Made by a program: the position numbers and the translations under genes
The notes under the pieces: model-generated
The model's database searches: none
Told to the model about the DNA's origin: nothing
The model's input: only the letters and a program-made list of their open reading frames with translations
Part shown: piece by piece, positions 1,171-57,186 of the stretch
Numbering within the stretch: the stretch's first letter is position 1
How the letters are laid out: each line of letters opens with the position of its first letter
Source: Psilocybe cubensis
Lineage: Eukaryota
Assembly (NCBI GenBank): GCA_017499595.2
Contig: CM039010.1
Location: 248,001 to 312,000 of the forward strand
Length of the DNA stretch: 64,000 nucleotides
Direction: 5' to 3'

Positions 1171-3670
1171 ATGTTGTCGCCTCGACTATCCGTTGCGGCT
1201 CTATTGCTGGGGTCTTCGACCGTCCTAGCAGGCACCGCTGGTTCGTTTGCCCAGGCTGGTAATACACTCGTCAGTGCACTTTTGGTGAGTATGTCATCAC
1301 CTGGCTCCGCTCCGTGTCAAACTCAATTGGCGTCAAGATGTTTTTGGGGAATGAGGAAACGGTATACATTATCGACAAAGCTGAGGGGAACGCCGCTGCA
1401 GTCGCGGGCCATCCAGCATGGGGTGCAAAGTGGTGAGATTGAGTGCATCAAAAGAGCTTTACCTCCGGCTTGACGTGTTACCCAGGGATATAGCGTCGCA
1501 ACAAGCAGAAGTGATGGATATTCGATCAAATACATTTTGTTCCTCAGGGATGCATCTGCCTAACGGTTCCTTCATCAATTTGGGTGGAAACGACGGTATC
1601 ACAATAAACGGCGCTCCTGGTTCAATAAAAAATACAGACGGATCAGGAACAGGCTTTTGGGACTCAATATACCAAGATTTTGACGGACGAAAATCGATTC
1701 GCATTCTTAATCCTTGTGGATCAGCCGACGATATAACCTCACCACAGTGTCGTTGGTATGATGATTCTTCAGTTCTGGCGATGAAATCTGGGCGATGGTA
1801 TGCTGCAGTAGAGCCGCTTGGGGATGGTACGATTGTTATTCTAGGTGGATTTACAGCTGGTGGATACGTTAATCGGGAGTTCCCTGTTAAAGATCCTATT
1901 ACGCAGAGTGGCCAAGCACAGAACACCTACGAGTACTATCCTCCGAAGGACGTTGCTCCTCCACTGGTTCAGTTCCTCGTGGATGCAGGAGGCCTAAATG
2001 CATACGCGCACATGTTTTTGATGCCCTCAGGAAACATCTTTGTTCAAGCTAATCGATCTTCCAGTAAGCTTTCACCGATTGACATGTGGACGTGGTTTTG
2101 AACAATTTATGTAGTGCTTTGGGACCACACGTCCAACACGCAAACTCCTTTGCCAGACATGCCAAACGGTGTTGTTCGTGTCTATCCAGCTTCGGGTGGT
2201 GCTGCCATGCTCCCTCTCACTCCCGCCAACAATTACACGCCCACGATCATCTTCTGTGGAGGTTCAACAATGCCAGACGATGATTATGGTAATTATGGTG
2301 GACCCCACGCCGAGACTTGGAATATCCCTGCGTCGAATGACTGTCAGCGTATCACTCCAGAACCTCAGGATGGATCTGCGCCAGTATATGTAGCTGATGA
2401 TCCCATGCTCGAGACGCGCACCATGGGACAATTTATTATCCTCCCAGATGGAACGTTGTTGATGATCAACGGAGGCCTGAACGGAACTGCTGGCTACACT
2501 ACAAACCTCAACGAATTCATTACAGAACTCCCCTTTGGAACGTCACTGGCGTCTGGTCCTGTCTTTACTCCGGCCATTTTTAACCCTAATGCGCCACCTG
2601 GCAGCAGGTGGTCTAATCAAGGACTATCTCCATCTACTATCCCCCGCTTGTACCATTCCTCTGCCATCCTGCTCCCAGATGCCTCCGTTCTGGTCGCCGG
2701 ATCCAACCCGAACCCGGATGTCAATTTGTCGACGGTCTTCAACACGGAGTACCGCGCCGAGATTTTCTACCCACCGTACTTTAGCGCCAGCATTCGCCCA
2801 GCACCCACAGGTATCCCGAAGACACTGTCGTACGGTGGTGCTCCATTCGACATCACGATTCCTTCAACGTCATACACCGGCTCATCAAACGATGCTGCTG
2901 ACAATACGACAGTCGTGGTCGTCCGTGGTGGATTTACTACACACGGCATGAACATGGGACAGAGGTTCTTGCAGCTGAACAATACATACACTGTGAACAA
3001 GGACGGATCCATTACCCTACATGTATCTCAGATGCCTCCCATCCCCAACATTTTCCAACCAGGACCTGCATTTGTATACGTCAATATCCACGGGATTCCA
3101 AGCAACGGCTCGTATGTCATCATTGGCAGTGGCAACATTGAACAGCAGCCAACCTCGCCTCCTGGTACACTCCCATCAAGCGTCCGTCTCGACTCAGCTA
3201 CAGGAGGGATCCATAACGGGACATCCCAAGATAACGGCTCATCAGACAGCGACCCAAAGAAATCTTCCAACCTCGGTGTCATCATCGGTGCCATCGCTGC
3301 GGGTGTGGCCGTCGTCGCGGTTGTCGGAGCGCTCATCGCCGTCTTCCTCGCCCGTCGCAGACGCGCTGCGGCCCGCCTCGCGCCGAGCAAGGAGTACCCA
3401 CTCTCAACCGCAGGCGCTGGCTGGACATCACACAACACCGATTCGAGCGTGTTCGTCCCACTCGCGCAGGCCAAATACGACGATACGTGGGACCCACGGA
3501 CGTCGTCGATTAATGCGCCATATATGGACGAGCGCAGGGCGGCGTCGTCGATTGGGAGCAGGAGCCAGGTGTTCGGAGAGTACGACCCGTACTCAGGCGA
3601 GCCTGCGCAGACTCATGCAGCGCCCATTTCGCACAGCGGTTATCGAGAATCGCCGTCGAGCTTCCGATGA
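1171..3670 (+). CDS. Copper radical oxidase / glyoxal oxidase-like (CAZy AA5_1) with signal peptide and C-terminal transmembrane anchor; 4 exons
   Basis: Signal peptide MLSPRLSVAALLLGSSTVLA. GT-AG introns at about 1285-1337, 1433-1485 and 2064-2114. Motifs NTFCSSG (Cys), GRWY, RLYHS (Tyr/His ligands) and FTTHGMNMGQR (His). Hydrophobic helix LGVIIGAIAAGVAVVAVVGALIAVFLA followed by RRRR. Confidence 0.93.
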
Positions 3671-14991: not shown

Positions 14992-16299
14992 TATTACTTA
15001 TATATATTATATGTATTCTACTCGTCGCCTGTTTTCCTGATGCGGTTGTGGAAGCAGGAGAACATTTACACTGTTACACAGACAGTAGGTGCTCTGGGGC
15101 AGTTCCCAATTGTTCCGTTACTAATGATTTACTCTAGAATTATATAAAACTTGGTTTTTCTCTCATATACGTACAGACTTGCATTGCATGCCTTGGATGT
15201 CCCCTATATTTATTTTAAGCCCTCAGTCTAAGTCTAACTGGCGTTGCCACCGCCCCATCTGAGACTATCTTGTTCTTATTTTTGGTTGTACATTAAGCGC
15301 ATACAACAGAATACTAACATTAACGGTTGGCAGTCAATGACTGTCATATGCAGATAATTAGAGATCACTCAGTTTGACAGAAAACGTACTATGGGATCCG
15401 GGGAGAATATCAAGAGAATATAAGAATAACTTGCTTTTCATAAATTCATTTCCTCTCAACTCCGTGTAGCTAGAAATGCAGCGCATGGTGTTTTATGCCA
15501 CGATAACGTCTTCCGGCGGATTGTTGAACACTGGGCCGCAGGAGAGTGGGGCTTGCTGTTACACTTGAAACCCTCTGTACCTTGAACATCATAAGTTACG
15601 TATTTAAAACGTATTTGGGACATAACCCCGAAAATTCAATAAATTCTTATACGGCCCGAATGTGCATAGTAAGCGACGTAGCTGCCTTCTACGCCTACCA
15701 TCACGCTGTCTTGTTTTATCTCCCGCGAACACCGAACGAATAGTGGACGCTAGTTTGCGGACAGGCCTCTCCGCTAGGTTCTGGAGCATTCATACTATTC
15801 CTTCATGCCGTCGCGGCGCAGGGGTGACGGGGTCGGTCATCAAGAATGAACAACGCCATGGTGGTACGGCATCACAATCGGGTCGTCATGTGTCTACGAC
15901 TGTGAAAGAGTATTGTAATCGATCCGCCCATACCGCACCCTGTTCCGCATTTTCTAACACCATTGTGAACGAATTTAGGTACGTTACGTTACAGAGATTC
16001 AGTAGATGGCTTCACCTACTCATCTGCTGATCTGCTTGCAGCTCAATTCTAGGGCCAACTGTCAGTTTAGTGTCTGCAACTGGGAATGCTTTGTGGAACT
16101 ATGACGCTGCCCAGCGCACGTTCATAGTACGATCTTAATTGGAATCTACGGGGGTAATCCAAGATATTGTTCTCCTGAAATAGGATCGGATATTTCCAGG
16201 TATGACCCTCATGGTACGGGGCAATGGCGGGGTGTTCCCATGGTTCATTTACGATTTGTAGATTCTGAATCGAATTATTCCTTCTTGACTGCAACCACC

Positions 16300-17950
16300 A
16301 TGGCTAAATCGACTGCCAACAGGAAAACTATTGTCTCCAATGCTGCTCGCGACCTCGTCAGAGCACTGGAAAAGCGCGGCTTCACATGTATACTTGTCCA
16401 AGATATGGCGGCCTTTCTTCAAGGAAGTAAAGTTGTCCCTAAAGTAAGTGTACCTCCTGTCCCTGGTTCTTCTTGATATTCAAAATCAAATTGCTTTCGT
16501 GCAGGACGTTAAACTAGTGGTTCTACCCCAGTCTGTGGGGATCCCCGTCAACAACCAGCTGGGACGAGACCTTGTCGAGCAGCAACCCTCCAAGTTTCGG
16601 GTCCGTCAGCGAAAGAACAAATCCGACGTTTTGTCATATTATGACTCTTCGATCGCACCTCCTAAAAAAACATTCTGTGATTTCGAGCTCATCTCCGTTA
16701 AATATCCCCCACCGCCAGAGTATCGCCCGGAGCTTACTAGCCGAGTCGATGGCCTACCGGTTCTTTCTTTGCTTGCCATAGTCGTCGACAAAGTCAACGA
16801 ACTGTTGGAGCAGTACGACGCATCGTCCAACAAGAGCGACTTCATTCAACGACCACCGAGGAAACTTTGCCAGACGATCCGAACATTATTGCCGACATCG
16901 GGCCATTCGATCTGCACTCCTACCGACAAGTCATTCCGACTAGAAGCTCTGGATTGTTTTATACGAGCTTCTGCCCTATTCCCGGAGTTTTCGTCCGGGC
17001 TAACAACATTGATCCGGGCTTGCCAAAACATGAAGACCATTCGGCTGTCACGCCCCGACGGCTTTCCTGTTCTCGACGTTGCCCATTTCTTTCGGGGTAT
17101 TGACCTAGCCTTTGAGAGCCGTCGAGAACTCGCCTTGCCGGTTAGCAGCATGGAAGTGGCCTCCCCTGTCTCCACGGCAAGCTCATTAGAGCCATCAGAG
17201 AAAGCATTTTCGCTTCCAGATTCTGATGCCACCGCTGTAGATGAAATCAAGACCGAAGCTCAATATAGAACCGAGGTCACCTGCCTAGTGGCGAAGAAGG
17301 TGGTCGATATCCTCCAAAATATTGGAGTTGAGACAGCTTTGTTCGGCAGTTTGGCGTGTCATTTGTACGGCAATGAAAGGGCTCCGAACGACATCGACAT
17401 CATTACGTTCCCGCCGCCTGGACGATTGATGACCGCAGAATGGCTGAAGCAGGCGATCTACAACGGTGACCCCGAGAATTTTATCTTAGAGTATGGGAAG
17501 AACCCCAACATCGCATATCGCGTCCTCTATTATCGTGTCTCCGATGACTTGGCTCCTTCAAACACCTTTCATAAAGATAAATGCAAGGTCGACGTCCTCC
17601 TTCCAGGCACCATGAACCTTCCATTCCTACCTTCCTACAACATTAAATGGAGGCAAGGCCTTCCCGTGGTTCCTTTCTCACTCCTCCTTCTCCAGAAGCT
17701 TCAGGGCTGGGATGACCATCGACGAATGCCTGAGCCTTATAAATTTGAAAAGCACAAAGTTGATGCCTCGGACGTTCAGAGCTTGCTCCAGCTTGAGCAC
17801 GCTGTTCCTCTTCGGTTCTCGAAACCTTGGACTAATCGTAACTTGTTCAACGAGGATTTCTACGATCTTTCGTTGAAAAGAATCAAAGAATTCTCAGCCA
17901 TATACCCTGCTTGCGCTGATGGGTGGGCCCGCCTTGGCTTCACCGTCTAG
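16300..17950 (+). CDS. Pol-beta-superfamily nucleotidyltransferase-like protein with a duplicated domain (degenerate N-terminal copy, intact C-terminal copy)
   Basis: Exon 1 is 16300-16443, the intron is 16444-16504 (GTAAGT...CAG), and exon 2 runs to 17950. The C-terminal domain has ALFGSLACHLYG...PNDIDII, then KVDVLL, GLPVVPFSLLLLQKL and KHKVDASDV. The N-terminal domain aligns to it but lacks the catalytic residues. Confidence 0.8.
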
Positions 17951-28330: not shown

Positions 28331-28954
28331 ATGGTGCGTATTCCGTCTCGAAATGCTGGTTTGAATGCTGGGGCACCGTTTTCTGGGATTTGAAGGATGG
28401 ATTTGGGATGGATGCGGATGAAGGAGTTTGGATGTACCTTGGGAACTCAGGCCTTTGGCGATTGGATGACTGACATTTTTTTGGGTTTGTGCACAGGCCG
28501 ACCTCGCCCCCACCTACGCTGCTCTCATCCTCGCCGATGATGGTATTGAAATCACCGTGCGTCTATCCCCTCGGTTTTTGTATCAAAACGTCAAGGAATA
28601 TTGATATGATTTTTGGACTTCTACTCGATCAGGCCGACAAACTCATTGCTCTGACCAACGCTGCCGGTGTCGAAGTCGAGCCTATCTGGGCTACTCTCCT
28701 CGAAAAAGCCCTTGCGGGCAAGAACATCAAGGATCTCCTGTCAAACGTTGGTGGTGGTGGAGCTCCCGCTGCCGGTGCTGCCCCTGCCGCTGCCGCCGCA
28801 GGTGGAGCCGCTGCTGAGGAGGCACCCAAAGCTGAGGAGAAGGCTGAGGAGAAGGAGGAGTCAGACGATGATATGGTGCGTTTTGTGTCCATGGCCTATC
28901 TGGCGATGAGTGCTGAATGCTTTCCTTTTACAGGGCTTCGGATTGTTCGATTAA
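28331..28954 (+). CDS. RPP1: 60S acidic ribosomal protein P1; 4 exons
   Basis: M | [20 protein letters not shown] | [48 protein letters not shown]...[10 protein letters not shown] | GFGLFD*. The C-terminus is the canonical P-protein SDDDMGFGLFD. Confidence 0.97.
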
Positions 28955-29758
28955 ACATCACGCTCTCGTATATATGTTATTTTGCCCATCATCCTCATAC
29001 ATATACACACCAAAAAACTTCTGAAAACACTCATATCTTGTGTGCACATGAAGACCATCACGTTTCATTTCGATCCGGCATTATTGTACTGTTATATTTT
29101 CCCTCAACCTATTGGGTGACTGCTTTCTCGACCTTCAAAGTTCAGGCACGCAGTTTTTTTGTCTGTATGAGTGTCGGGCTACCCCGTTCTTTATAGTGAA
29201 CATATCTTAATGATTGAGCGGCAATGATTCTGCACAATTCTGCTGGGTCATAAATCGAATTAAGGTATCTATTCAGCAGTGTCAAATGTGTTGATTGGTT
29301 TTGGTTCCATCGTGTCCTTTGCATGTCACTGTCCCTTGTCCCTTTTCATCTTCTCCATATGTTTTTTATCTTTTAATTTTCAAAGCTCCCAAGGCTGAAG
29401 ATTCGAAAAACCTCCCATTGATCGGTGTAAGAGCCTCCAGATTCAATCATGTGACGTTGCACGGTCCAGGATGAGCGAACAGGACATACTTTGTTTTCCT
29501 ACTTCCATGTCATCTTGAGCCTTTTCGTTAACTATCGAACTTACATCGTTATCATGGTCAATTCGGCAACTATTTAAGCATAAGCATTTGGATTCTTGGA
29601 GATTTATCACATTAGGTATCTTAGGTATCTTTCGTCTACGCGGATAAGTATTCTGGTACTTACATTTTTGCAAGACCACATTGCACGGATTTTGGATTTA
29701 GGTTGTTCTGAAGATATACTTTCAACATTGGATCTCCTCTCCCACAATCGCGTCAATA

Positions 29759-32036
29759 ATGGAGGAAAACTATAAACAAGCAAAGGAGGATTTTGTGTCT
29801 GGAACTACAGGGTCCTCTATAACACACATCAATGCCATCTCCCTCGTCGCACTGGTACGTCGTATTATTAGTATTCTACAAGTACAAGTTGATGTACCCG
29901 GCTTCAATAATGCTATAGACTTCTGTCGCTCTCTACGCTGCCGTCCAAACACGCTCTCGAATGGCAAAATCAAGCACGGGGTTCTTTGCGTCGTGGGTGC
30001 TTCTCATTCTGCCCATGCTGTCCTCTATGACGGTCGCGGCCGAGTACCCGCGAGTCGTTTGGTTGAGTATAATTCTGGCAGGGTCCACTGGGTGGGTGCT
30101 GAGGATGCCATTAGTAGAAAGAGGGACGCCGTTGCCTTCCAGTCAGAAGTCGCCTGCGCGTAGGGTTACCCCAGGTGTTGGCGGGACGGTTGACGTCGAC
30201 GTTGGTGTTAGTTCTGGAAGAAGAGACGGTGAGGCTGGGTGGAGGAGCATGCACGAGAAGCAGAGAGCTGTCAGGCTACCACCATTACCTGCGTTGACAA
30301 CGTACAGGGCACATATGATGCTGATGACGGTCCTTGCCATTCTCGCCGTGGACTTTCCTGTGTTTCCGAGATCGTTGGCCAAGTGCGAGACGTTTGGCGT
30401 GTCCTTGGTGTGTAATTCTATTCCCAGTAGAATGTTTGATTGGGGAATATGACTGACCATACCGGGATGTTTGTCTTGCTTAGATGGATCTTGGGGTCGG
30501 TTCATTCGTATTTTCTCAAGGCGTAGTTTCTGCTATACCACTCATCAAAGACCCTCGCTACCTCCGTGCTCCACTCATCCCGAAGTTACTAAAAGTTGTA
30601 CGGAAATCGTTGCCTATCATTGCGCTGGGAATAGTGAGGGTGTTGCTCGTCAAAGGCACAGAGTATCCGGTACGCGGATTTTACTCTTCGTTGAACGGTT
30701 CACGGCGGGCATAATGACATTCTTGTGGCTGTATTCTAGGAACATGTCACCGAGTATGGTGTCCACTGGAATTTCTTCATTACTCTCGCTCTCTTACCAG
30801 TTCTTCAAGTTCTGTTGCATCCCTTGCTTGCTTGTTTCCCGATTTCAAACTCGGTTCTTGGCGTCGCGATCGGTGTTGGTACGTCCATTTCCTGAATATA
30901 TGCGTTCAGTTACTTGATTCTCCTACAGTCCAACAAATCGCATTGTCGGAACACGGGTTCGGCTTGCAGAATTACGTTCTTTTGGCGCCCAGGACGTCGG
31001 TGGTAAGCATGAATAAGGAAGGACTGGTATCGTTGCTTGGTTAGCCCATTTCATCTCTTTCTTTATTCTGCCATTAACATTGAGGTCTCAACCATCGTCT
31101 GCTTTATGTCAAATAGGCTACCTCTCCATTCATCTCCTTGGTCTCTCAACCGGGACGAAAGTCTTACCGCCAACACCATCCTTCTACGGCCGGCGTCAAA
31201 AAGCACTCGCCAAGTCTCTCGATAGTGGGGTGGGCGGTGGAAGAAAGCGACGGAACAGTGACCCCATGGACAGCGACGAAGAAGAGGAGGAGGATGTAAA
31301 AGGCAAACTCAAGCAAGGTAGCGGGAGCCCGACTGACCTTGACTTGTCGGCGCCTAGACAACTGGACAAGACGGCAACGGAGCTATGCGGGTATTCGATC
31401 GTCTGGTGGGCGCTTTTCGGCGTGGCACGGCTAACCGGTGTGGATGGCGGGTGGAGAAGGGGAGATGGAGGTGTTTCAAGGAGGATGGTGAGTCCCGCTT
31501 TGTGTCATTTTATCGAATTTGGTTTGTGATTGATCTGTGGAATAGGTCAACATCTCGTATATATTCTGGATAGCGGCTTTTAACGTTTCGTTCTTGCTGT
31601 GCTATGTCGTCGTTCTAGACCTATGGATATATGCAAAAGGCCCCTCGAAAGCGAACACCCAGAAGAGGTTGGATAAAGATACGACGCCTGCTATGGTCGA
31701 GCACGAGAATCCGCCCAGGTTGTTGGAAGCAATTAATGATTATGGCCTGTCTGTTTTTTTGTTGGTAAGTTCTTGTTATTCCATTGTGATATTGTTGCGA
31801 TGTAATATCCTTTATTCACGTTCTCATTCTTGGTTTGATTGTAGGCGAATGTTTTAACTGGACTTATAAACCTGAGCATGTCCACAATGTATATGTCGGA
31901 CGCGAAAGCCATGTTCGTCTTGAGTTTGTATTCGATGGTGTGCTGCGCGGTGCCTTGGTTTCTTAGCAGCAACAAGAGAAAGAGAATGGACACTTCGAGT
32001 CTAGGCGTTGTGCAGTCGGAGAATAAATACAAATAA
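29759..32036 (+). CDS. GWT1: GPI inositol acyltransferase GWT1/PIG-W, multi-exon
   Basis: [112 protein letters not shown]. Confidence 0.95.
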
Positions 32037-33261
32037 CTATCTCATCGTGCGTTAATACGTTGTTTAATCTATTTGAGGATCGGAACATATTCTTAGCCTT
32101 TGGCCCTTGGATATCGGTGATAATATGTGGCTTGAAAAGCCTCGGACGATGATACTTGAGTGTCTTGGGCATTCGCCTTGTTATTGGCTTGGATAGAGCG
32201 GCGTTGATTGGCTGAGCATTACTTCATGTTGTTCAACCTTTCCTTCATATTTATTCTGCATCTTTTCAATCCTCTATGAAATTTGGATGCGACATGACTT
32301 TCTGCATGCAGCGTTGAAATGTGATTCAATGAATTGGAATTGGCAGAATAAATTTACATGGAATTTGTAGTGAGCAGGCTAGACCTGCGTCCGTATTGGC
32401 TGCTCGTAACCGGCGCGCTTGCCCCGATGCGGCAAGGTTGAATGCCACGGTATCACATTGCTTACTTCTTTCCTCCATGACCTCCTTGCCCTGTGCTCCG
32501 AAACTGTCAAAGAACCTCAAAGAACCCAGATCGCAGCACTACTGCAGCATGTTCTGTGTACATTAATCGGCACAGCCGTTGAAAACTACGAAACCAAGGC
32601 CACGGAATGTTTTGAGTCCTCTAGGCCAACCCCAAGCTAATCTTGAGCAAGTCGTGAGACGGGCTTGACATGCGACATCGTCAAGAATGAATGTTATTTG
32701 CAAGAATGAAACGGATTATGGGAGTCACTACCTCCCCCCTGATGGATGATCGCGCCAATGGGAGCGGAGGACCGTGCGGAATGAGAGCATTGTCGAGAGT
32801 CCAGACCATGATTCGACCAAATGGTTATTTGCATCGACACCGCCGAATCTACTGGGAAGCCTTATAACTTACCGTAGAGTCGTTCGTGTCCATTTTTCGC
32901 TTTCCTTTGTCTTCTCACTACCACAACGTTGGAAGGCCCGCCTTACATTCACTCGCGGAAGGATCGTAATTTTGCTTTCACGCTCGAAGGATTCGACGGG
33001 GAGGGACCCAGGTCTTTTCATTTGTTGGCTATTTAACACAGGCGTCGCAACAAAGATATTCCGGCGGAAACAATTTTACATTCGCTAGACATTGGCTCTA
33101 CTAACCACTCAGTAAGAGACATCCGCTCCAAACTTGATCCTGCTGCTCAGTAATCTGTGCTAACCTTCGTCAATGATAGACATCGGGCGAATCACTGTGA
33201 TTCTGTACTCCTGATTCTAATTTCTCACTCGCGGAAACCAACATTGTCAAAAATATCAACA

Positions 33262-35360
33262 ATGCGCGCCGTCGCCGATGCCAGTGACGCCATTGTTCAC
33301 CACGACGTCGATCGAATATCTTTATTACCCCCGGAACTTCTTGGGGAGATATTCACGTACACCTCCTCGTTCGACCCGGATGCGCCTCTCCGCGTGGGCG
33401 AAGTGTCTACTCTATTCCGTCGCACTGTCCGGACTACACCGCAGGCGTGGACGCGCCTTTTGCTATCGTTGTCCGTCTCGCCATCGGATCTGTTGCAGGA
33501 TGCAAACTCCGTTGAGGACGCGGATGGGAGGGCCATTAGGAAAGCCGAGTTATGGTTCGCAATGAGCAAGGTGACTCTTGTGGATGTAAGCATCGAGTTG
33601 TCGTCTTCCGCTCAAGGCCCCAGCAAGAATGGTTCGAGGAATCATACACATATCCTAATACCTATGCGTGGGTACGTGTATGGTCACTGCCCCTTAGAGA
33701 GACGAAATCTCATAAACCTAGCCAAAATTTACAGGACGTACAAATTGATTTTTCAGAGCTTATTTTGCCCCATGTGTTGCGGAGCTTCACACAGCGGATA
33801 CGGGCGCTAGATCTGCTTACGACAACGGAGAATGAGGCTCAGGCTTTCTTGTCTGCTATGTATCCCTCACCGGCGAATTTATTGTCTCATGTTGAAGGCG
33901 ACCAAGTCTATCCATTGCAGAGCCTCGCTTTCCATGCTTCGTCAGATGGATCGGGTCATGTCCCAAACAGACGTCGTACTGACCAGGTCCGCGCCATCAC
34001 GAGACGTGGTACGTGCTCGAACATCAACACAACGACTGGCGCGCTCGTCCTTCCATCTATTCCATGCTTAAGGCACCTCTCGTTTTACAATCATCTACTT
34101 CCACCGCTCTCTCCAGAAAATGTCAAAAACTTAAGGGTGCTACAACTACATTACCCGCTACGCTTTTCACCAATATCCATTACCACGTTGTTGGGAGTAC
34201 TAAACGAGGCCAGGTCGTTAGAGAGGGTTGAGATTGAGGCGAGAGTCACTTTGGAGAACGTATCACCTTCCAATTCAACTTCTCCTTCTTCGAATTCTGC
34301 GTCGGGAAGTCATAATATCGCTGTTTCTCCACCGACAACTCACCCTTCCAACCTTGCTACGGTAGCCTTGGTACCTCTTTTATCACCGTCAGATTCCAAC
34401 CATGCTCCTTCTGCCTCTTCGAGCCTGTCCTTGGATTCTCATTCGACCTCCAATGATCAGTTACCGCTCATCTCTTTGCCGCGTCTCACATATCTGCACC
34501 TTCGGATCAACAACCTTCCGTCTGTGCTATCACAGCTTCTTTTACCTTCCCTACATACGCTTAGTATTGACGATCTAGATGGAAAGAGGTCTGGAGCTGC
34601 GAAGCAGATGGCTGAGGTGCTCAGAGGGTTGCTCGTCAGGATGGAGATGCCTGTCGATGATGTGGAAAACGTGGATACTCCAGTTGAAAAGAAAAAGCAG
34701 CTCGACGTACAGAAAGGTCTGGAGGTCTTGGATATGTGTAGTGTTGCTCTGCCTGCATCTCAGGGGCACCATGGGGGACTGATATCCGCAACCGATGCTC
34801 AAGCGGCGCATGCGGTGTGGGCGTGGTGCTTCAGGCGGATGAGGGTTCTTAAGGAGATGAGGGTTAAAAAGATGGACGCGGATTCCTTGTTCGAGTTGAT
34901 CACACCACGATTGCGGACATCACGTTCTGGCGTAGACGTTGGCGCCGCCGCCACTACCAACTCACATGGTCTCGAAAATGGGCAGAACGAAAAGGACGAT
35001 ATCCCTCTGCCTGCGTTGCAGAAGCTCGTCGTCGTCGAACAAGACGCGTACCATCCTAAATCAAGTGCTGCACTACATCGTATGAATGCTTGGGGACACG
35101 GCGATAACCATGAATTCAGTTCCGCCGTGTCATCTTCTCCCTTCGACGCTCCTCATTCGCCAGCTTCATCGAACTTGAATTATATGGATGGCTCTTCGTC
35201 GGCATCTCAGGACCGCAATATGGATCTTCAAGCACAAGGTAGTGCGCTTATCAGGTTCCAAATGAGACGGCCTGAGGTGGAGGTTATTTATGATGCTTCG
35301 AGTAGACAAGTTGTTTCGTCTTCGGTGGGCGTGGATTTTTTGGATTTGTATGCAGGCTGA
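33262..35360 (+). CDS. F-box protein with degenerate LRR-like and Ser-rich C-terminal region; 2 exons
   Basis: ISLLPPELLGEIF...PLRVGEVSTLFRRTVRTTPQAWTRL (F-box). An intron at about 33672-33721 joins it to ORF 33552..35360, which contains LPRLTYLHL and LLLPSLHTLSI repeats. Confidence 0.8.
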
Positions 35361-38139: not shown

Positions 38140-40169
38140 ATGTCTTCTTCATCGCATGCTGAAGAAAGGTCAACTTCTCAAGGATACCTTCCGCGTGGAG
38201 GAGCCTGTGTTAGTTGTCGCCGTCGAAAAATGGTACTCGCTCGCTTACGATCCTTAATAACTAGCACAACTCATCCACACTCATAGAAATGCGATGGGAA
38301 ACGCCCTATATGTTCTCAATGCGACCGCGCAGGACGCGCCGAGGACTGCGAATATACAGTTGGTCAAGAACGGTCAACAGTCCAGATTTTAGAAGAAAAC
38401 ATTAGCAGATTGGAAGCTCGGATACAAGAACTACAGAATCCAGCACCTCCGGCTTCGTCTGCTATTGAGCTCCATCAGCCCTACGGTGTTAGTTCATCTG
38501 ATTTCAATGGTATCGGTTCCAACTCACGCTATTTACTACAGGATCTTCCAGCACATCTTGCAGAGGCATTGTAAGTTCAATTTGAACGAAACCTGGTTTT
38601 CGTTACTTTTTCATAATATTTGATATAGAATCAATAATTTTATGCCGCACGCAGGCCAAATTGGTTTTTTCTTGAACCTGCCACGGTTCCAAGCATCTCT
38701 GCTCAATGGCCAAGCACCAGGAAGAATGACGCGGCCGTCTTGCGCATTGGCCGCAGCGACCTATCTATGGGCTATACGCCTTTCGAATGATCGCTCAGTC
38801 AAGGCTCATGAACATACATATCTAACACGCGCAACACAGCAAGCGGCTACTGCACTCTCGGGGCAGCATCCTGACAGAGTAATGCAATCTATACAGGCTG
38901 AGGTTCTCCTTGCCACGTATTTCTTTGCGAATGGGAGATTTTTCGAAGGGAAGTACCACGTAACTACCGCGGTCTCCATGGTCTTTTCGGCAGGTCTGCA
39001 TAAAATTCGGTCATCTGCTCCCCAGCAGCAGAGTGTAACTGGAAGCAGTACACGTCTCCCTGAGCCCAAGGACTCAATCGAGGAAGGAGAAAGAATCATG
39101 GCATTATGGACTGTGCTGGATCTTGATAAACATTGGGCAATTGCCCTGGAGCATACCCCAAATTTCGAGTATTCAACTCATCCCCTTGCTACCAAAGTTG
39201 ACACTCCATGGCCTCTTGAGATGGATGAGTTTGAGCAGGTAAGTGAGAGCACAATATATAGGCTACATTGATTGATGGTATTCGTTTTACACCCAGGATC
39301 GTCTACCATCTTATGCAATCACTTCAAACACGATATACAATTTCCTAAATTCTATAACAACCCCAGATCTTGGGATATCCCTACGAGCAATTGAGTCAAA
39401 AACAGCCATACTCTGGGAACGTGTTGCTGTGTTTACGCGTAAATGCAACGCAAGTCCGTCCCTAAATTTCCCCGTCCAGAGTTCCAGAGAAACTCAATTT
39501 GTATACATAGGAACCTCTCAGCAGTCTTTACAGCCGCTCGTAGAGGAGTTTACAGGGCTTTCCAACCTTTTGGATAGTGTTCTAGGCCTACTTCCGTCTC
39601 TTGACCCACAGTCCATTGGGCGGATTCAAAGCGTAGAAATGGCTCGGCGTTATGGTGTCGTGTACAGCATCCTATGCTCTGCGTTCATTCGTCTTCATGC
39701 TCCTTTCGCATTTTCGGGGAGGAGCGAATCCTCACTTCGGAAACGCCTTTCAATGGCGCGTACCATTTTGGAGCTCGCGATCGGCCTCCGGGGAAGAGGT
39801 GTCGGGTATCTGAACCCAATCATTGGTGTAAGCGCCCACCTTGGTTATTAATTTCCATGCTGTACATATGGACTTACCGCGCGCTCTTTCGTAGACTGTC
39901 TGGATTGAGGCGTCTCAAGTTGTTTTCGACGAAGTTTCCCGCATCCGTTCCATGAGAACATCCGGTACTTTACTTCCCGGGGGCCCTGATGAGCGAGTGA
40001 TGCTGGGTCTCGTTAACCGAGCTACCCAAGCCATGGCAGGGTTCACGATGAACATTCCCTTAACAAGTGAGCTACTATCTATCAATCTACAACATATCCA
40101 TTCAACAACCTCTTTCATCTATCAGGTTTCCAAGTTGCAAAAATACAAGAAACTTCTCAGTTGAATTAG
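38140..40169 (+). CDS. Zn(II)2Cys6 transcription factor with fungal-specific middle homology region
   Basis: Spliced N-terminus LPRGGACVSCRRRKM | KCDGKRPICSQCDRAGRAEDCEY followed by the coiled coil LEENISRLEARIQEL. Later IQAEVLLATYFF...GLHKI and EEGERIMALWTVLDLDK...VDTPWP. Confidence 0.92.
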
Positions 40170-41593: not shown

Positions 41594-42569
41594 CTACACG
41601 CTCATTTTCATGGAGATTGCCGGGTGAGAAGTGTATCCTTCCACAACGAAATCAGAATAGACGAAATCTTCAATATCTAAAATATTATCCCTGGCCCATC
41701 GAAGCTTTGGAAATGGTTTAGGCTCCCTTTTGAGCTGCTCCTCCAGAGCGTCGACGTGATCACGATAAACGTGGGCATCCCCGAGCTGGATGACCAGTTC
41801 GTGAGCGTCCGTGCCCGTAACATGTGCGATCATGTGCGTGAGGAGAGCGTAAGATGCGATGTTGAAAGGAATTCCAAGACCCAAATCCGCGGAACGTTGG
41901 TACATCAAACATGAAAGTTTGGGTTTTTGCGAAGGATTCGACGCGGGTGGGAGTTGGACATAAAACTGACACATCATATGGCACGGTGGAAGCGCCATGA
42001 GTGGGATATCTGTTATCCAGATCAGTGGTGTACTTTCTCGAATAAATCAGAGACGTACCTTTGGGGTTCCATGCACTCAGAATAATCCTTCGATCTGTAG
42101 GGTTTTCCTTGATCTTCTTAATACATTCTCGAAGCTGATCAACACCCTGCCCTGTGTAGTCTGTCTCGCAGTCAACATATTCGGCACCAAAATGTCTCCA
42201 CTGGAATCCATATACCGGACCAAGATCGCCTTCCCGTCGGTGTCCGAGTCCGCGACTTTCGAGGAATTCTTTCGAGCCGTTTCCGTCCCAAATCTTCACC
42301 CCCTTCTTGGCTAAGATTGTGGAGTCTGTTGATCCGTGAATAAACCAAAGAAGTTCTTCCACAATTCCTCTCATAAAAGTTCGCTTTGTTGTCAGAAGAG
42401 GTAAAGTGGAGTTGGCCAACGAGAAACGTAGTGAAGGTGGCGCAAAGATTGCTATGGTGCCCGTTCCTGTACGATCAGGACGCGTATCTCCAGTGTCCAA
42501 GACGCGTCGAATAAGTTTTAAATACTGATATTCATCATGTTCCGTAGTTTGAGAGACTGAAATAGTCAT
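41594..42569 (-). CDS. CDC21: Thymidylate synthase; 2 exons (intron 42010-42058)
   Basis: [91 protein letters not shown]. Confidence 0.98.
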
Positions 42570-43189
42570 TTTGACAGAACTATGAGAGTGAGGATGGAAG
42601 TGGATAAGGATGATGGGAGTAGGATTCAAGCCGCGCGTTGGGATTCATTTTTTGTCACACCATAGTAGTTGCGCGTGAGGTAACGTCACGTGGTGTCACT
42701 GTCAAAACCGCGGCGTCAAAAATCGCGTCGACTGCCAGTGAACTTCAAAGTATCCCAAGGAGGAACTTCAGTCCATTGATATAAAGGAAATATATCGTAT
42801 TATAGCATTAAAACTTAGTGAAAAACCCAGTAAATGCTTCGTCAGTGACCTTGGTGAGAATGGCCCCTAATTCGAGCACATGACAAATTACCAACTCCGC
42901 CCACAGGGGCCCCGAAGAATTTTTGCAACGTAATCTTCAACTTGAACCAACACATTAAAACAACTCAGCGGTGAGCTTTACTGCATCTCGAGCATTTCCT
43001 ATTGGCCTTCGATTCGTGTATATTCCAGATTGAAAACGTTGCGCCACGACATCATCAGAAACATCGGAGCGTCAGTCAACGCCGGTGAGTCAGTCATTCA
43101 TCTCTGAAAAAAAGCTCTGTGAATAGCTGGAATCCACTAGGTTATTATCATACCTCATATCCAACATAAAAATATCGAGTGTGTCATAT

Positions 43190-50998: not shown

Positions 50999-52602
50999 TT
51001 ACACATAGCAGTCATCAGAAACTGGCAGGACGGTGACCGAAGAAAGAGCACCGTAGCGGTCTCTATGAAGTACATAGATCAAATTGTTGCCTGTAGTATC
51101 CTCGGATTTACGAGCAATAACCGTCTTGAGATGCTTGCATCTAGCCGCAATAGCTTTGAAGTATTCAAGAATTTCAGATTCTTTTCGGATAGATATAGTT
51201 GACCATGGCAGGGATATTGTCTCTACGTATTGAGGTATGCCAAACATGATTCCAAGGTGAGTCTATTGGATCGGTAGTCAGTGTTTATATCAATCAGGCG
51301 TAGTGTTAGTGTATGTTACGACGCACTGATGTCATCGGCGGCAGTCGCCCGTACCAGCTAGTCACTCCTGGGCAAAGCTCCGCAAATTGGTCCATACATT
51401 CCCGATGGATGAGTGAGGTTGTATCCTGCTCCATCATGGAATGTAGCTCAGTGAAGAACTCTAACCGCAGTTTCCTCACAAAGGGAAACTTTTGATCCCT
51501 CGGAGTTGTGTCTGCGTGCATGATGGCCCGAACCATCTGCTTTAGCCTTTCACTCAGGGTGGTGTCCTTGTAAGGACAGTATATCGACAGGGAAGCGAGG
51601 GTAAAAATGGACTGAACATTGTGGCTAGCAAGCAAGGTGATGTTTTCGAGAAACCCTTCGAATGACCTGAGCAAAGGGAGGGAATCTCGGAGTAGATGGT
51701 TTCCGTCAAACTGGAGAAAGAGGTCGTGGGCATTGGTGACATTGTTCTCGACGAGAGGCCTGGTTTTTCCCAGGGATAAATGGGTAATCTGGGGGTGATC
51801 TAATATAAAACGTGTGATTTGCGTGTTGACTTGTGCGGGATTCTCAGCATGTGCCAATGTCCCAAGCTCAAGTGAACGGAGACAGGGAAATCGAAATGTG
51901 TGAAGAGAGCTATAAATCTCTCCCCTGATCTCGCCAACAAACGAAATGTGAGTAATGGTGTTTTTTGAGGCGAACATTGTTTCATTGAGGGGCAAGCAGT
52001 AGTCCGAGTCACTATCATCTGGCAGTAAATATGTCAATTGGAGTTCAACCGTAGAGAAATGGATGAATCATACTCTGCCCAAAATGCCCTTCAATTTCTT
52101 GTAGCCTCGAAAGATCAAATGTGTCTGGCAAGGTTCTAAATCCAGGCCTGTATACAAAACGTCTGAGCTGGTGGCAGCAGCTATGCAAGGTGTAGACGAA
52201 GCGATCAGAACCTGGTCCATTCGAAAAAGGATACCCTCTGAGTTCCAATGACCTAAGATTAATCCAACGCTTGGCGATATCTGGGGCGATCCACTGGTAA
52301 ACTTGCTGAGTCTGTATGAGGGTGGGAGGCATCGTCGTCAGCACAGCCGAGACGATCTTCTGATCAATGCTCTCATGGCCTCGGAGGAAGTCCAGTGTGT
52401 ATTCAAGGTATAAATCATTGCTGCGAAGGTCGATGTGCTGGTAGAGAAGCAAGCATCCTGACAAGTTGAATGATTTGCACACTCTAACCACGTGGGCAAG
52501 GTCTCTTCGCGGGAGCGATGAGAATATGTTGGCGAGAAGCTCGGGAGCAAGCCCACGAAATTTAGACTCCGTAATGATTCTTCTAATTGGAACGTAATGC
52601 AT
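50999..52602 (-). CDS. F-box / LRR-like protein, multi-exon
   Basis: GLAPELLANIFSSLPRRDLAHVVRVCKSFNLSGCLLLYQHIDL (F-box), then repeats NLRSLELRG, CLRSLELG, HPQITHLSL, LPLLRSF. It joins ORFs 52045..52602, 51306..52037 and 50999..51247. Confidence 0.8.
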
Positions 52603-55600
52603 CTTAAAAACCTAGAGCGGTTCAAAACACTGCAGGCATGGTAGAAAATGTCTCTGAAAATGTCACTCACCACTTTTGCCACAAGTCAGGCTCGCACAAG
52701 GCTGCAGATTCCGGAACTGGTGAGGATTTCTAGAGAAATATCAGCGGCGTTTTCTTCTGGTATAGATTAGGGAGATGATAATGGTTGAGGTTCAAAACCC
52801 AGCGCTTATAAAAGGCCGCCCATGATTTTCCCTTTTGACGCCGGCCAGTCCTCGTCATTACACGTGTTCAAAAGAGGGTCTACAAGTACCGTTCAGTGAT
52901 GATACAGATACAGGAGGTATCTGTAAATGTACAACTGTGAAAGATACTGATGAATGTCTTGATGTGCGAACCCCTAGATTGTTTACTCGGGAAACATGAC
53001 GATCTGCCTTTGTCAATTTACAGCAGCAGTCAGGACGATGTTCTCCGAAATAAATGTTCTTTGATGTTGCCTGAGAAGAATCCACAATGCAAATGTGGTT
53101 ACACATAGCGGATCACAACCACAAACTAGAAATTTTCAAGTCAACCTCAATCTTCCGAAAATACACTGCCCGTTACTGTGGAGATCGTGTGTTGATACTA
53201 GACTCGTACGAGTGAAGGAAGCTAAATTTCATCTTCCTGCTTCCATGGTGCTGCTCTTGATGATCATCCGAGGGAAATGGGAGGAGTAGTGATGGATTTA
53301 AGCTCAAGCCCCGCGTGCTTCGGAAGTCAAAATCTTTTAATCGCCGCTTCCTTTCCCTGACAATGATAGACAGACAACAACAACGAGGTCAAACGGCGAT
53401 TACTCTGCAGAAATATGAAGTGATAGCTGATTGGTATTTGAATTTTTTTTCCATTCTGGTGGATCAGTTGATGAAACATGTTGATAAATGTCTTGTAAAC
53501 GTCGTTCAAATGGTAATTCAAGCGAGTGAATCTTTAACCGGGGACTGCGGATTTGAGAAGACTTCAGGCCAAAATTACGCATGGTGGGTGGTAACATGAT
53601 GCACATTGAAGGCCACAACACTGCCATTTACAGACATAAATGAACCTAATTTGCACAGATAAATAAGTGTAGGAATGCCTGCGAGCAGGTTGTGATTGAG
53701 ATGAGGTCTTCTTAGGCATTTCCTTTTTGCTCTGAGGGGTTACTGATGGCGACCTTTGATCGTTGTGCGATTTTCTTTTTCATTGTCCCTATATCTTTAT
53801 GAGTTTCTTGTGAGATCGCCGTCGTTTGTGTCCGGTAACGCGATTTCGCTCCAGCTTATCATTCCTAACCAAGAAATCCGCTTATTTTTCAATGTTGGAC
53901 AGTTGCGGCGAACAAAAAATTTCCAAATATGGATGGTCTTGGAGGACTTGAGACCTAAAAATTGGGTTTGCCCGGATACACTATCGGGAGAGTTTCTTGG
54001 GGCCAGTTGGGGCCTATCCATCAGAACTTCAGTATGATGGGCTAAAATCATAATAAACAGTACCACAGACGGCCATAATATTTACGGCGGGAACTCTCGA
54101 AATAAATATCTTAAGCAGAACGGCTGTATACTGAAAAATTACAGTTTGTTCTCAGACGCCGTGCTGATTATTGTTTTTGTTCGGCAGAGCTATGATCCTT
54201 ACTTCATTACCGGTAAGAATGAATCACTGTTGAATCAGCGTGTCATTTATATTAGCCACTGCTTAAATTCGGTTTAAATGAGACATACTTTGATGATGCC
54301 CCCGTGGTAGTTGTCGGTGTTGTCGTTAGTATTGTTTGAATGCTACCTTTGCGCCTTTGTCTGTAGCGGTTCTTTCTTGAATATAAATATTTAGTTCAAA
54401 TTTTTAGTAAGAGCAAAAGCCTTATCCAAAAGTTGTTCCAAAGGACGTCCAAAACATTGTACTCTTTGTTGTGCGCTTTCATTGTCTTAACTACTGAGAT
54501 TGAAGATGAATATATTTCTGCTATTAGCACTTGTAGATAACAACAAAATTTCATCAAATATTTTTTCTTGTCGAAGATTAAATCAAAACAGCCAGGAATA
54601 GCTCATGCTTCGGCCCAAGGTCTTGTAATAAAATGTCTCTGCTGGCAAGCACCTCATCAATATAGTGGCATATAGTATGGTATTTGATCACAGTGATTTT
54701 CAACGCCAGCTGGAGTGGCTAACATGCGGCTTATTTGTTTAACCTGAGAATAAATCCTATAAGTAATGTTTTGCATAGTAGGTACAAGTTAAAAGGAAAT
54801 TGTCCGCCACTGGTGAAGCCTGCCTGCATGTTTTAAATATTCTAAAGTTACGCTGAGACTGATATCCATTATCCAAAAATACTAAGCTCAAGTGGACGTT
54901 CTCAGTCGTGGGTTACGCCTGATACGTCGGCCCTATGCGAGTTATTCTCTTTTTTTTTGATGGAGCGTTTGATTAGCTTGTCGCTACGGCCTTTCCGCGC
55001 TAGGAGCCCGCTAGTTAGTACTAAGGTTTTATGTGCCCCAGCTCACATTTTATAATCGGGCAGCGCTAACCACCAGGAAGAAATGCATTTATGCAGACAA
55101 GTTGAAGAGCCTTTTACAGGTTCAACAAGTACTGTGGGACTCGACGTTATGGCCACTACCCACTAAAACTATAGTAAGGTCGGCCACGATAACTCGTGCC
55201 AGGGCGATGGCACTTGCGGCTAAGCCATCTTGCCCCTATGCGAACTAATGATCTCACACACCGATCACGCCCGAAATCCAAACAAGATATAAGTCACTCG
55301 AAAAGATTTTCAGTTGAGAGAGAAATTGTGAAAATTCGAGATGAAGAGATAAATTGGGAAGGATGCCAGAAATCCGTTGTTTTGGATATTCTGTGGGTGC
55401 GTAGGCTTTGGCGGGAGGTCTGAAAATACAAAGGTTGAGGCAAGCAACAACAGCGACATTGGATGACTTTGGTGTATTTGAGTGAGAGTTTGAAGAGTAC
55501 GTTGGAATTGCTTCTCCCATGCCAATAAATGAATGACTACTATAAAGGGTGTTCAAGATGACATGGTATCAATAAAAGCAAGAGAATCAATCAGATGATA

Positions 55601-55655: not shown

Positions 55656-56439
55656 TTAAAGCTTGGAACCACCGACAGCCTCGTTGTAGCGAGCCTCAGC
55701 TTCTTCAAAGTTGATGACGTTCCAGATGGCAGCAAGGTACTGAATTTGTGCGTCAGACATTGTTCGGAAGGCAGAAACAGAACAACTTACGTCGACTTTG
55801 ACGTTCTTGTACTGGAGGTAGAAGGCGTGCTCCCAGATGTCGACGCCAATAATGGGGACGAGGTGAAGAAGAGGGTCCTGGTTGGCGGTGGTCGCAATCT
55901 CGAGTTGCTTGTTGGCAGGGTTGACGCCCTGACACGAATTGTTAATTATAGGCTACTTGAGACAGACAGATTAGATCAAATACGCACGAGCCATCCCCAT
56001 CCTGACCCCTGAATGCCGGCAGTGGTAGCATTGAACTCCTTCTTCAGGTTATCAAGCGATCCAAAAGTCTTTTCAATGGCAGACTTGAAGGGTCCGTCAC
56101 GAAGGACACCGCCGGTGCCTTTGTTGACTGCCGCAGAGGGAGCGAGGTTCTTCCAGAAAAGAGAGTGGTTGATGTGGCCTGATCAGCGGTGATAAGCATT
56201 CCGATAACATTTTTATCTTCAGAAATGAAATCGGCACCTCCTCCGTTGAACTTGAGGGCAGCCTGGAGAGCAATTCTCTCCTTGGGAGTCGAGGCTTTGG
56301 CGTACGAGGCCTCAGCAGCGTTCAGGGCGTTGACATACGTCTGATGATGCTTAGTGTGGTGAAGAACCATTATTTCTTCCGAAATATAAGGCTCGAGAGC
56401 ATTGTAAGGGTAAGGAAGAGGTGGGAGTGTGTGGGCCAT
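55656..56439 (-). CDS. Manganese superoxide dismutase with no N-terminal presequence and C-terminal SKL; 4 exons
   Basis: [81 protein letters not shown]; ends EAVGGSKL*. Confidence 0.96.
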
Positions 56440-57186
56440 GTTTATGCGACTGTTAAAGTGGTGGTTGGGGTTTAAAACCTGGAAAGCGCTACGCCGTTTA
56501 TCGATGAGACTGGCTCGCCGTGTGATGTCACAACACGTGCAGCGTTTATGGCGCAAGCGCGACTGAATTCGAACGTTGAGTCAGCGTAGTATTGGCACAG
56601 CCACATTTGCGCACTTCCGTATTCGACGGGCATTCTGGACAAAATTTATGTTTGTGACAATCTGTAAATACTAGTATTGTCAAATACTTGCAAGTCATTT
56701 CTCTTCAAAGTTTTAACAAAAATTATTATTTTGATATTCTTAAGAAACAAAGCAGAAATTGCAGATGTTATCTGCCAGCCGAATTACCGACACAGCGACA
56801 TTCCCGCCATCTTCAACATAAAGTTTTGGGGAGTAACGCTGCAAGAAACATCCTCTCCGTCAAAATTTCTCAAACTTTGCCATTTTTTTGCCTCCGATTT
56901 AAACTTGTGTACCTCCCGGAGTAAGATCGTGCTCGAAAGCGTCTGGGCGAGACTACATTTTCCCCTACACTGATTCATACAAAATGACTTTGCCGAATGC
57001 CTTCCTACTCTTGGTTACCACGGCGAACAGCTTTACACCAAGAATAATTGCGAGGCTGTGAGTCATGACTGACATCGCGTAACCTTTAAATACCAGTACA
57101 GTTCTTTAGAACAGGCGAACCCAGCCTTTTGACAAGGCAAAAGCTACCCTCTCTTTCCCACTGTAACAGCAGCATGCTGTTTTGTG

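Follow-up and report, generated by a model that had tools for sequence, protein, structure and literature searches.

The 64,000 nucleotides of Psilocybe cubensis contig CM039010.1 analysed here (assembly GCA_017499595.2, positions 248,001 to 312,000, forward strand) are called the window below, and all coordinates are those of the window. At 16300-17950 on the + strand lies JR316_0012810 (P0003), a gene with two coding exons whose 529-aa product had been read, in an original prediction made from the sequence alone, as a pseudo-enzyme joined to an active nucleotidyltransferase (NTase). Our results confirm this tandem architecture and place the protein next to the AbiEii/MenT (DUF1814) NTases, which are known as bacterial toxins.

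Gene structure and expression

Exon 1 (16300..16443, with the ATG at 16300) encodes residues 1-48, which contribute to the first domain its opening helix and strand and the site at which "GS" has degenerated (Q34-D35, 16399-16404), and exon 2, delimited from the sequence (16505-17950), adds 481 aa and the stop codon TAG (17948..17950). The coding intron between them is 61 nt long and in phase 0 (16444..16504, GTAAGT..CAG), and a further intron of 62 nt with GT..AG ends lies in the 5' leader (16198..16259); once spliced, the leader contains an in-frame stop 5' of the ATG. Assembled contigs from the public runs X1 and X2 skip 16444-16504 and 16198-16259 exactly, and both introns are retained in contigs of two further runs, X3 and X4. 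That X1 and X2 are RNA runs is a guess by the tool, and the evidence used here is the two GT..AG joints in the contigs themselves. As these contigs join the exons exactly as modelled, the gene is transcribed and spliced as modelled, and JR316_0012810 is expressed. After splicing, the translation agrees at every residue with the database entry "hypothetical protein JR316_0012810 [Psilocybe cubensis]". With the splice verified, an earlier alignment that spanned the exon junction (..VVPK on one side, DVKLVVL on the other) is legitimate. The contigs of X2 and X4 differ from the window at single bases inside the gene (16835, 16837, 17513, 17518, 17653, 17776, 17863 and 17866), which are strain or allele variation.

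The protein falls into three parts. Residues 49-224 (16505..17032) complete the N-terminal pseudo-NTase domain, which ends in a helical lobe and is delimited by the repeat alignment, a hidden Markov model (HMM) and the predicted fold. The linker that follows (residues 225-298, 17033..17254) is poorly conserved, acidic and predicted to be disordered, as judged from identity, isoelectric point (pI) and model confidence. Residues 299-529 (17255..17947) make up the putative AbiEii/MenT-like NTase domain, recognized by its complete catalytic set, its fold and a profile match.

Internal repeat and catalytic residues

Three comparisons bear out the proposal that the N-terminal half aligns with the C-terminal half. 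BLASTP of residues 1-260 against 261-529 pairs 8-145 with 303-447 (33/148 identical, E=6e-7); the Smith-Waterman score of the repeat is 84, which none of 1000 shuffles reach (31.9 +/- 4.4, maximum 55); and residues 7-145 are recovered at E=2e-13 by an HMM for which only the C-domain part of a 32-homologue alignment was used. By these comparisons the two putative NTase domains of JR316_0012810 are paralogous and the internal duplication is real. The tail of the N copy gives no sequence alignment past HMM position ~146.

The signature FGS-x13-DID, placed by the original prediction at 17345-17398, is present there in the C copy as G329-S330 (17345-17350) and D344-I-D346 (17390-17398), separated by 13 residues. 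The third Asp had been assigned to KVDVL, where it is found as D411 (17591-17593) within K409-V-D411 (17585-17593), and the K...D..D pattern of the helical tail corresponds to K446 (17696-17698) and D468/D471 (17762-17773); R340 and P342 are further sites of this domain. The substitutions described for the first copy, GS to QD and DxD to DxK, were likewise seen, at Q34-D35 and D49-V-K51 (16505-16513), and can be refined by E110 (16688-16690) opposite D411 and K144 (16790-16792) opposite K446. The N copy retains two of the three acidic positions and has lost the Gly-Ser turn and the second Asp. Judged by these residues, the C copy is catalytically equipped and the N copy is not.

Predicted structure

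In a full-length AlphaFold2 model built with 32 homologues (mean predicted local distance difference test, pLDDT, 82.6; predicted template modelling score, pTM, 0.53), residues 1-222 and 299-529 show an identical order of helices and strands, and pLDDT is below 50 at 225-293 in the linker, which is ~74 residues long and has a pI of 4.75. The N domain modelled alone with nine orthologues reaches a pLDDT of 88.5 and a pTM of 0.84. The best structural match of the C domain is 5UVD, the nucleotidyltransferase-like antigen of Paracoccidioides brasiliensis (Z 18.2, 202 aligned, root-mean-square deviation, rmsd, 3.2), followed by MenT1 (Z 13.5, 177 aligned, rmsd 3.2), TglT/MenT3 (Z 12.3-12.8), JHP933 (Z 11.1), ANT(2'')-Ia (Z 10.3) and LnuA (Z 8.8). 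5UVD is also the best match of the N domain (Foldseek E=4.3e-8, Z 13.9, 201 aligned, rmsd 5.5), next to MenT1 (Foldseek E=1.4e-5, Z 10.3), ANT(2'')-Ia (Z 9.7) and LnuA (Z 9.1), and the top Foldseek/VIA matches common to both domains are 5UVD, MenT1, JHP933, ANT(2'')-Ia and TglT/MenT3. Both halves, as modelled, share one NTase fold, and the NTase core plus helical lobe of the superfamily are present in the predicted models of both domains. An NTase fold of the N-terminal region, on which the original prediction depended, is thus borne out by modelling and searching that region separately, and a grouping of the C domain with a characterised housekeeping NTase was not seen.

The full-length model, as its pTM indicates, gives no confident prediction of how the two domains are arranged relative to each other. 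Docking of 296-529 against 1-225 scored 0.00 in two runs in which the controls were not folded, and it gives no evidence either way.

Residues 309-522 also align with the C-terminal domain of an AbiEi antitoxin from Streptococcus agalactiae (6y8q_A 57-195; Z 8.7, 132 aligned, rmsd 3.0). This Z is near the level called common, and 6y8q_A is absent among the matches listed for the N domain.

An Agaricomycete branch of the AbiEii/MenT superfamily

An exhaustive phmmer search at E<=1e-3 recovered relatives in 502 clusters (50% identity), most of them single-domain proteins of about 200-290 aa that match residues ~305-529, and the hits with a named source are all from Agaricomycetes (Agaricales, Polyporales, Russulales and Atheliales). 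Against PDB sequences, a profile of 32 mixed homologues reached 5UVD only (E=0.054), so that a cleaner profile of single-domain relatives was needed. The profile of 51 such relatives matches MenT1 (8an4; E=2.1e-8) across 168 of 230 positions (12-179), in register through all five DUF1814 motifs (G-G/S, R-x-x-x-D-x-D, VD-L, KL and D-x-x-D), and 5UVD weakly (E=2e-4). MenT1 is the only characterised protein with a significant match at the sequence level. Pfam AbiEii is matched by 13/51 of the single-domain relatives at E<=1 (best 6.2e-6), a precomputed PF08843 assignment exists for 2/120 relatives, and P0003 does not reach the curated threshold of PF08843; given how few these matches are, the family lies at the edge of the Pfam model.

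The motif definitions and the phenotypes of the corresponding mutants come from work on TglT (PMC7205606). Motif 1, hG[GS], is present in the C copy as F328-G329-S330, opposite G-G of MenT1; motif 2, [DE]h[DE]h with a preceding invariant Arg, as R340, D344 and D346, opposite R-x-x-x-D-V-D; motif 2a, h[DE]h, as V410-D411-V412, opposite VD-L; and motifs 3 and 4 of the helical lobe as K446, D468 and D471, opposite K-L and D-I-Q-D. The likeness to AbiEii/MenT toxins that had been noted by eye therefore holds at the levels of structure (MenT1 Z 13.5 and TglT Z 12.8 for the C domain), profile (E=2.1e-8) and Pfam family (13/51). We conclude from motifs and profiles that the family belongs to the AbiEii/MenT (DUF1814) superfamily, as a divergent Agaricomycete branch most of which lacks annotation.

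Dead and live copies across relatives

Nine residues (G329, R340, P342, D344, K409, D411, K446, D468 and D471) are invariant in the alignment of 32 homologues, and S330 is nearly so. The survey of single- and double-domain homologues that the original prediction had proposed divides 261 collected proteins into 217 with a single copy and 44 with two or more. All ten sites are aligned in 140/217 of the single-copy relatives, and the set is complete in 128/140. The downstream copy is complete in 37/44 of the multi-copy relatives; in four more the protein ends prematurely with its aligned sites intact, and three (P0040, P0066 and P0141) deviate. None of the 44 multi-copy relatives has an upstream copy with the full catalytic set, and the three acidic residues occur together in 0/26 of the upstream copies in which all three metal-ligand columns are aligned.

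Degenerate as it is at its catalytic positions, the N domain is nevertheless 63-66% identical to its Gymnopilus and Galerina orthologues, as compared with 27-30% for the linker and 68-72% for the C domain. The degeneracy agrees with the earlier description of the N copy, and the identities indicate that the putatively dead N domain is constrained, that is, conserved under purifying selection. When the domain copies are placed on a tree, the 24 N copies group together, to the exclusion of the 160 other copies (support 0.88), and with the Psilocybe group removed the 19 remaining N copies still do so (support 0.928); the tree excludes copies of fewer than 170 HMM positions, save for five N domains of the Psilocybe group that were added by hand. 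A single clade of N copies fits one old duplication.

Some of the multi-copy proteins depart from the simple dead-live order. In P0035 (Cyclocybe aegerita, 778 aa), the stretch upstream of the N copy resembles a third, partial degenerate copy (..KFRVRK..PPKQNWC..GLPVV.., alignment A2, columns 1-200), and the protein may be dead-dead-live. In P0141 (Athelia psychrophila, 464 aa), neither of the two full-length copies has the catalytic residues and both belong to the N-copy clade, so that the protein appears to be made of pseudo-NTase domains only. The order in P0196 (Termitomyces sp. Mn162, 822 aa) is partial-N, C, N, C; here two adjacent tandem genes have probably been merged in one gene model.

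Discussion

The most direct comparison is with the M. tuberculosis toxins MenT1 (Rv0078A) and MenT3/TglT (Rv1045) and with AbiEii (PF08843), which have the NTase core and helical lobe in common with the Psilocybe protein and whose hG[GS], R-x-x-x-D-x-D, h[DE]h, Lys and D-x-x-D elements its C domain shares. Of these, the K and D-x-x-D motifs of the helical lobe (here K446 and D468-x-x-D471) have been called exclusive to DUF1814 (PMC7205606). Unlike the bacterial proteins, the Psilocybe protein is eukaryotic, is encoded by an intron-bearing gene of its own without an antitoxin neighbour, and carries a fused dead paralogous domain. It also differs at the residue through which the toxins are switched off. 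In the bacterial proteins a conserved Ser or Thr stands two residues before DxD (S78 in TglT, T39 in MenT1), and its phosphorylation inactivates the toxin (PMC7205606, PMC11375011). P342 occupies this phospho-acceptor column in the Psilocybe protein; Pro is invariant there in the alignments of 32 and of 51 sequences, and among copies whose DxD is intact and in which the column is occupied, 184/188 have it. As to an antitoxin, no COG5340/AbiEi-type or MenA-like partner was found among the eleven open reading frames (ORFs) of at least 110 aa at 9-23 kb; ten of these have no Pfam family, and one has a weak DUF3533 match. The Pro at the phospho-acceptor position and the lack of an antitoxin gene nearby together imply that control differs from that of the bacterial systems, and the fused pseudo-enzyme would be the obvious candidate for taking the place of phospho-switch and antitoxin.

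On balance we lean, by a little, towards the following scenario. Tandem duplication of an AbiEii/MenT-type (DUF1814-superfamily) NTase would have produced a cytosolic two-domain protein whose C domain binds a nucleoside triphosphate with Mg2+ and presumably transfers the nucleoside monophosphate to an acceptor with a 3'-OH. Judging from MenT1 and MenT3, this acceptor would most likely be the 3' end of tRNA or of another RNA; the MenT toxins add cytidine monophosphate to tRNA at its 3'-CCA end, which blocks aminoacylation (PMC7450476, PMC10435456, PMC11162799). The N domain, as a non-catalytic tethered partner, may gate the live domain by recruiting either substrate or a protein partner. A role as conflict or immune effector rather than in housekeeping is suggested because of the restriction of the family to Agaricomycetes, its clusters of paralogues and its fusions to NACHT and NB-ARC domains, and it is the weakest link of the scenario. 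Such clusters are seen in Coprinopsis marcescibilis, which has four paralogues, each on a 39,435-bp contig (most likely one contig), and in Termitomyces J132, where two members have consecutive locus tags (J132_08708, P0022, and J132_08709, P0197). Fusions to a STAND (signal transduction ATPases with numerous domains) NTPase were found in 2/261 of the collected proteins: in P0082 (Leucocoprinus birnbaumii, 1913 aa) the NTase at ~353-594 precedes a NACHT domain at 772-936, and in P0136 (Mycena crocata, 1940 aa) the NTase is C-terminal and follows NB-ARC, TPR and zf-MYND domains. The NTase copy is intact in both.

Several observations weigh against this scenario of a gated, duplicated AbiEii/MenT-type NTase in conflict. 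P0003 and the products of its exons match no Pfam family even at E<=10. The structural neighbours also include two enzymes that act on small molecules, ANT(2'')-Ia and LnuA (Z 9-10), and for 5UVD, which binds ATP and CTP, a function could not be determined (PMC11646218, citing Coitinho 2019). Long-branch attraction could contribute to the clade of N copies, whose mean root-to-tip distance is 2.36 as compared with 1.70. On the tree of C copies, tandem and single forms are interleaved (17 changes among 34 tandem and 126 single copies), so that the N copy must have been lost, missed or truncated many times; the presumed live domain evidently works without the N domain in many species. The two fusions to NACHT and NB-ARC proteins could be merged gene models. 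Finally, the net charge of the N domain is +10 to +13 in 5/5 close orthologues (Psilocybe/Gymnopilus/Galerina; pI 9.44), while their C domains have -3 to +2, whereas the net charge of the N copy exceeds that of the C copy in just 8/16 of the other tandem relatives. A basic N domain as a family-wide signature of RNA binding was therefore rejected.

Among the alternatives, the autoinhibition put forward in the original prediction survives best. It takes the protein to be a toxin with an "antitoxin" in cis, a MenT-like NTase that acts on tRNA and arrests growth, with the dead N domain docked on the active-site cleft until a trigger releases it; the linker might be cleaved or phosphorylated, for example, or an NLR (NOD-like receptor) partner might intervene. 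The complete MenT/AbiEii motif set of the C domain, the Pro in place of the bacterial off-switch residue, the lack of an antitoxin-like neighbour among the ORFs surveyed, the conservation of the dead domain, the long disordered linker and the existence of NACHT/NB-ARC fusions all speak for it. However, contact between the domains is unsupported by the full-length model (pTM 0.53), and the intact domain without an N copy is common (217 single-copy as against 44 multi-copy proteins); a strongly toxic domain that depended on an inhibitor in cis would be difficult to tolerate in that form. We consider this version rather unlikely. A bolder form of the idea would make the protein a single-chain, self-restrained effector of cell death or translation arrest, its live domain extending tRNA 3' ends and its dead paralogue serving as inhibitor in cis or as substrate gate, which, alone or on NLRs, works in fungal immunity or allorecognition and derives from a bacterial abortive-infection or toxin-antitoxin NTase. 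So specific a combination seems unlikely to us.

The structural neighbours suggest another possibility, namely a small-molecule NTase like the aminoglycoside and lincosamide adenylyltransferases, acting on an antibiotic or a fungal metabolite, in which the N domain stands in for the second subunit of a dimer. Agaricomycetes share habitats with antibiotic producers, and both domains match ANT(2'')-Ia (Z 10.3 for C, 9.7 for N) and LnuA (Z 8.8 and 9.1). The C domain, however, scores higher with 5UVD, MenT1 and TglT (Z 18.2, 13.5 and 12.8), the sole significant sequence match to a characterised protein is to MenT1, and the motifs K446 and D468-x-x-D471 are those described as exclusive to DUF1814 (PMC7205606). 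A small-molecule enzyme is, in our judgement, distinctly unlikely. That the N copy is a functionless, decaying relic of the duplication, the protein amounting to a single-domain NTase behind a long leader, would account for the lost catalytic residues, the tail that cannot be aligned past HMM position ~146 and the single-domain forms of related species, but it is very improbable and disfavoured by the conservation data, since between genera the N domain is nearly as well conserved as the live domain (63-66% against 68-72%, with 27-30% in the linker), is predicted to fold confidently (pLDDT 88.5), and has been retained as one clade across many Agaricales genera.

For a duplicated AbiEii/MenT-type NTase with one copy as a possible gate, three further comparisons are informative. 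OAS2 and OAS3 and the poly(A) polymerases of giant viruses also pair inactive NTase copies with active ones. Like the Psilocybe protein, they hold a dead and a live NTase in a single chain, but they belong to other NTase subfamilies, with whole-chain TM-scores of 0.15-0.22 against the Psilocybe model. The whole model matches OAS2 (9h1z, E=2.9e-4, TM 0.18/0.15), the Megavirus polyadenylate synthase (4p37, E=2.3e-4) and OAS1 (4rwp, E=5e-3) weakly. Of the comparison with OAS2/OAS3 drawn in the original prediction, the tandem dead/live architecture stands; given these TM-scores, best matches in another branch of NTases and independent duplications, we treat the likeness as one of analogy, not of membership. 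The second comparison is with 5UVD, which is likewise fungal and the best structural match of both domains, but comes from an ascomycete, has one domain only (221 aa) and shows no more than 14-18% identity. The third is with the single-domain relatives in Agaricomycetes, such as P0201 (Trametes cubensis), P0176 (Amanita thiersii) and P0235 (Agaricus bisporus), which measure about 190-280 aa, have the complete catalytic motif and profile E values down to 1e-95 and, unlike the Psilocybe protein, are without an N-terminal pseudo-domain.

Much work has been done on AbiEii/MenT NTases as toxins of bacteria, but in the literature searched their fungal relatives are known only as Pfam counts in genome surveys. 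The occurrence of DUF1814 in fungi has been stated in one sentence each by PMC7205606 and PMC11375011, and genome surveys have noted fungal AbiEii-domain proteins whose "biological functions ... in fungi remain unclear" (PMC13468701; likewise PMC13448219). In the available parts of the literature on DUF1814/AbiEii in fungi we found no description of a tandem dead-plus-live architecture, of a Pro in place of the phospho-acceptor or of NLR fusions of an AbiEii-like domain, and the main text of a survey of fungal NLR effectors (PMC9815663) contains no occurrence of AbiE, nucleotidyl, DUF1814 or NTase. The Agaricomycete branch is sizeable, mostly invisible to Pfam and without the phospho-switch of bacteria; some of its members have evolved a pseudo-enzyme partner in cis that is conserved, and the domain occurs occasionally on NLR-type proteins. 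The locus therefore offers a concrete and testable entry to the eukaryotic control of a potentially translation-blocking enzyme and to the modification of tRNA ends in fungal conflict. Should the protein be a tRNA-modifying effector under control in cis, its interest rises; should it be an ordinary RNA or small-molecule NTase, its interest shrinks to that of a well-documented pseudo-enzyme duplication.

Genomic neighbourhood

The NTase gene stands alone in the window. A tblastn search of the window with P0003 returned the gene itself only, all other matches having E>=0.38, and the rest of the 64 kb holds ordinary genes. These include genes for a glyoxal oxidase (1385-3670), a 60S acidic ribosomal protein (28474-29196), GWT1 (29919-31529), a fungal-specific transcription factor (38624-39271), thymidylate synthase (41760-42644, -) and an Fe/Mn superoxide dismutase (56044-56580, -).

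An NLR-like fungal gene lies at 57319-58668 (+; NPHP3_N E=1.1e-22, NACHT E=3.3e-8), with a further ORF at 58981-59805. This NACHT gene (57.3-58.7 kb) was considered as a linked partner of the NTase gene and rejected, as it is 40 kb downstream and no link was found. Two F-box-like ORFs, at 33154-33810 (+, E=1.3e-4) and 52045-52611 (-, E=3.1e-7), adjoin large ORFs without a Pfam match, at 33540-35360 and 51306-52067, respectively.

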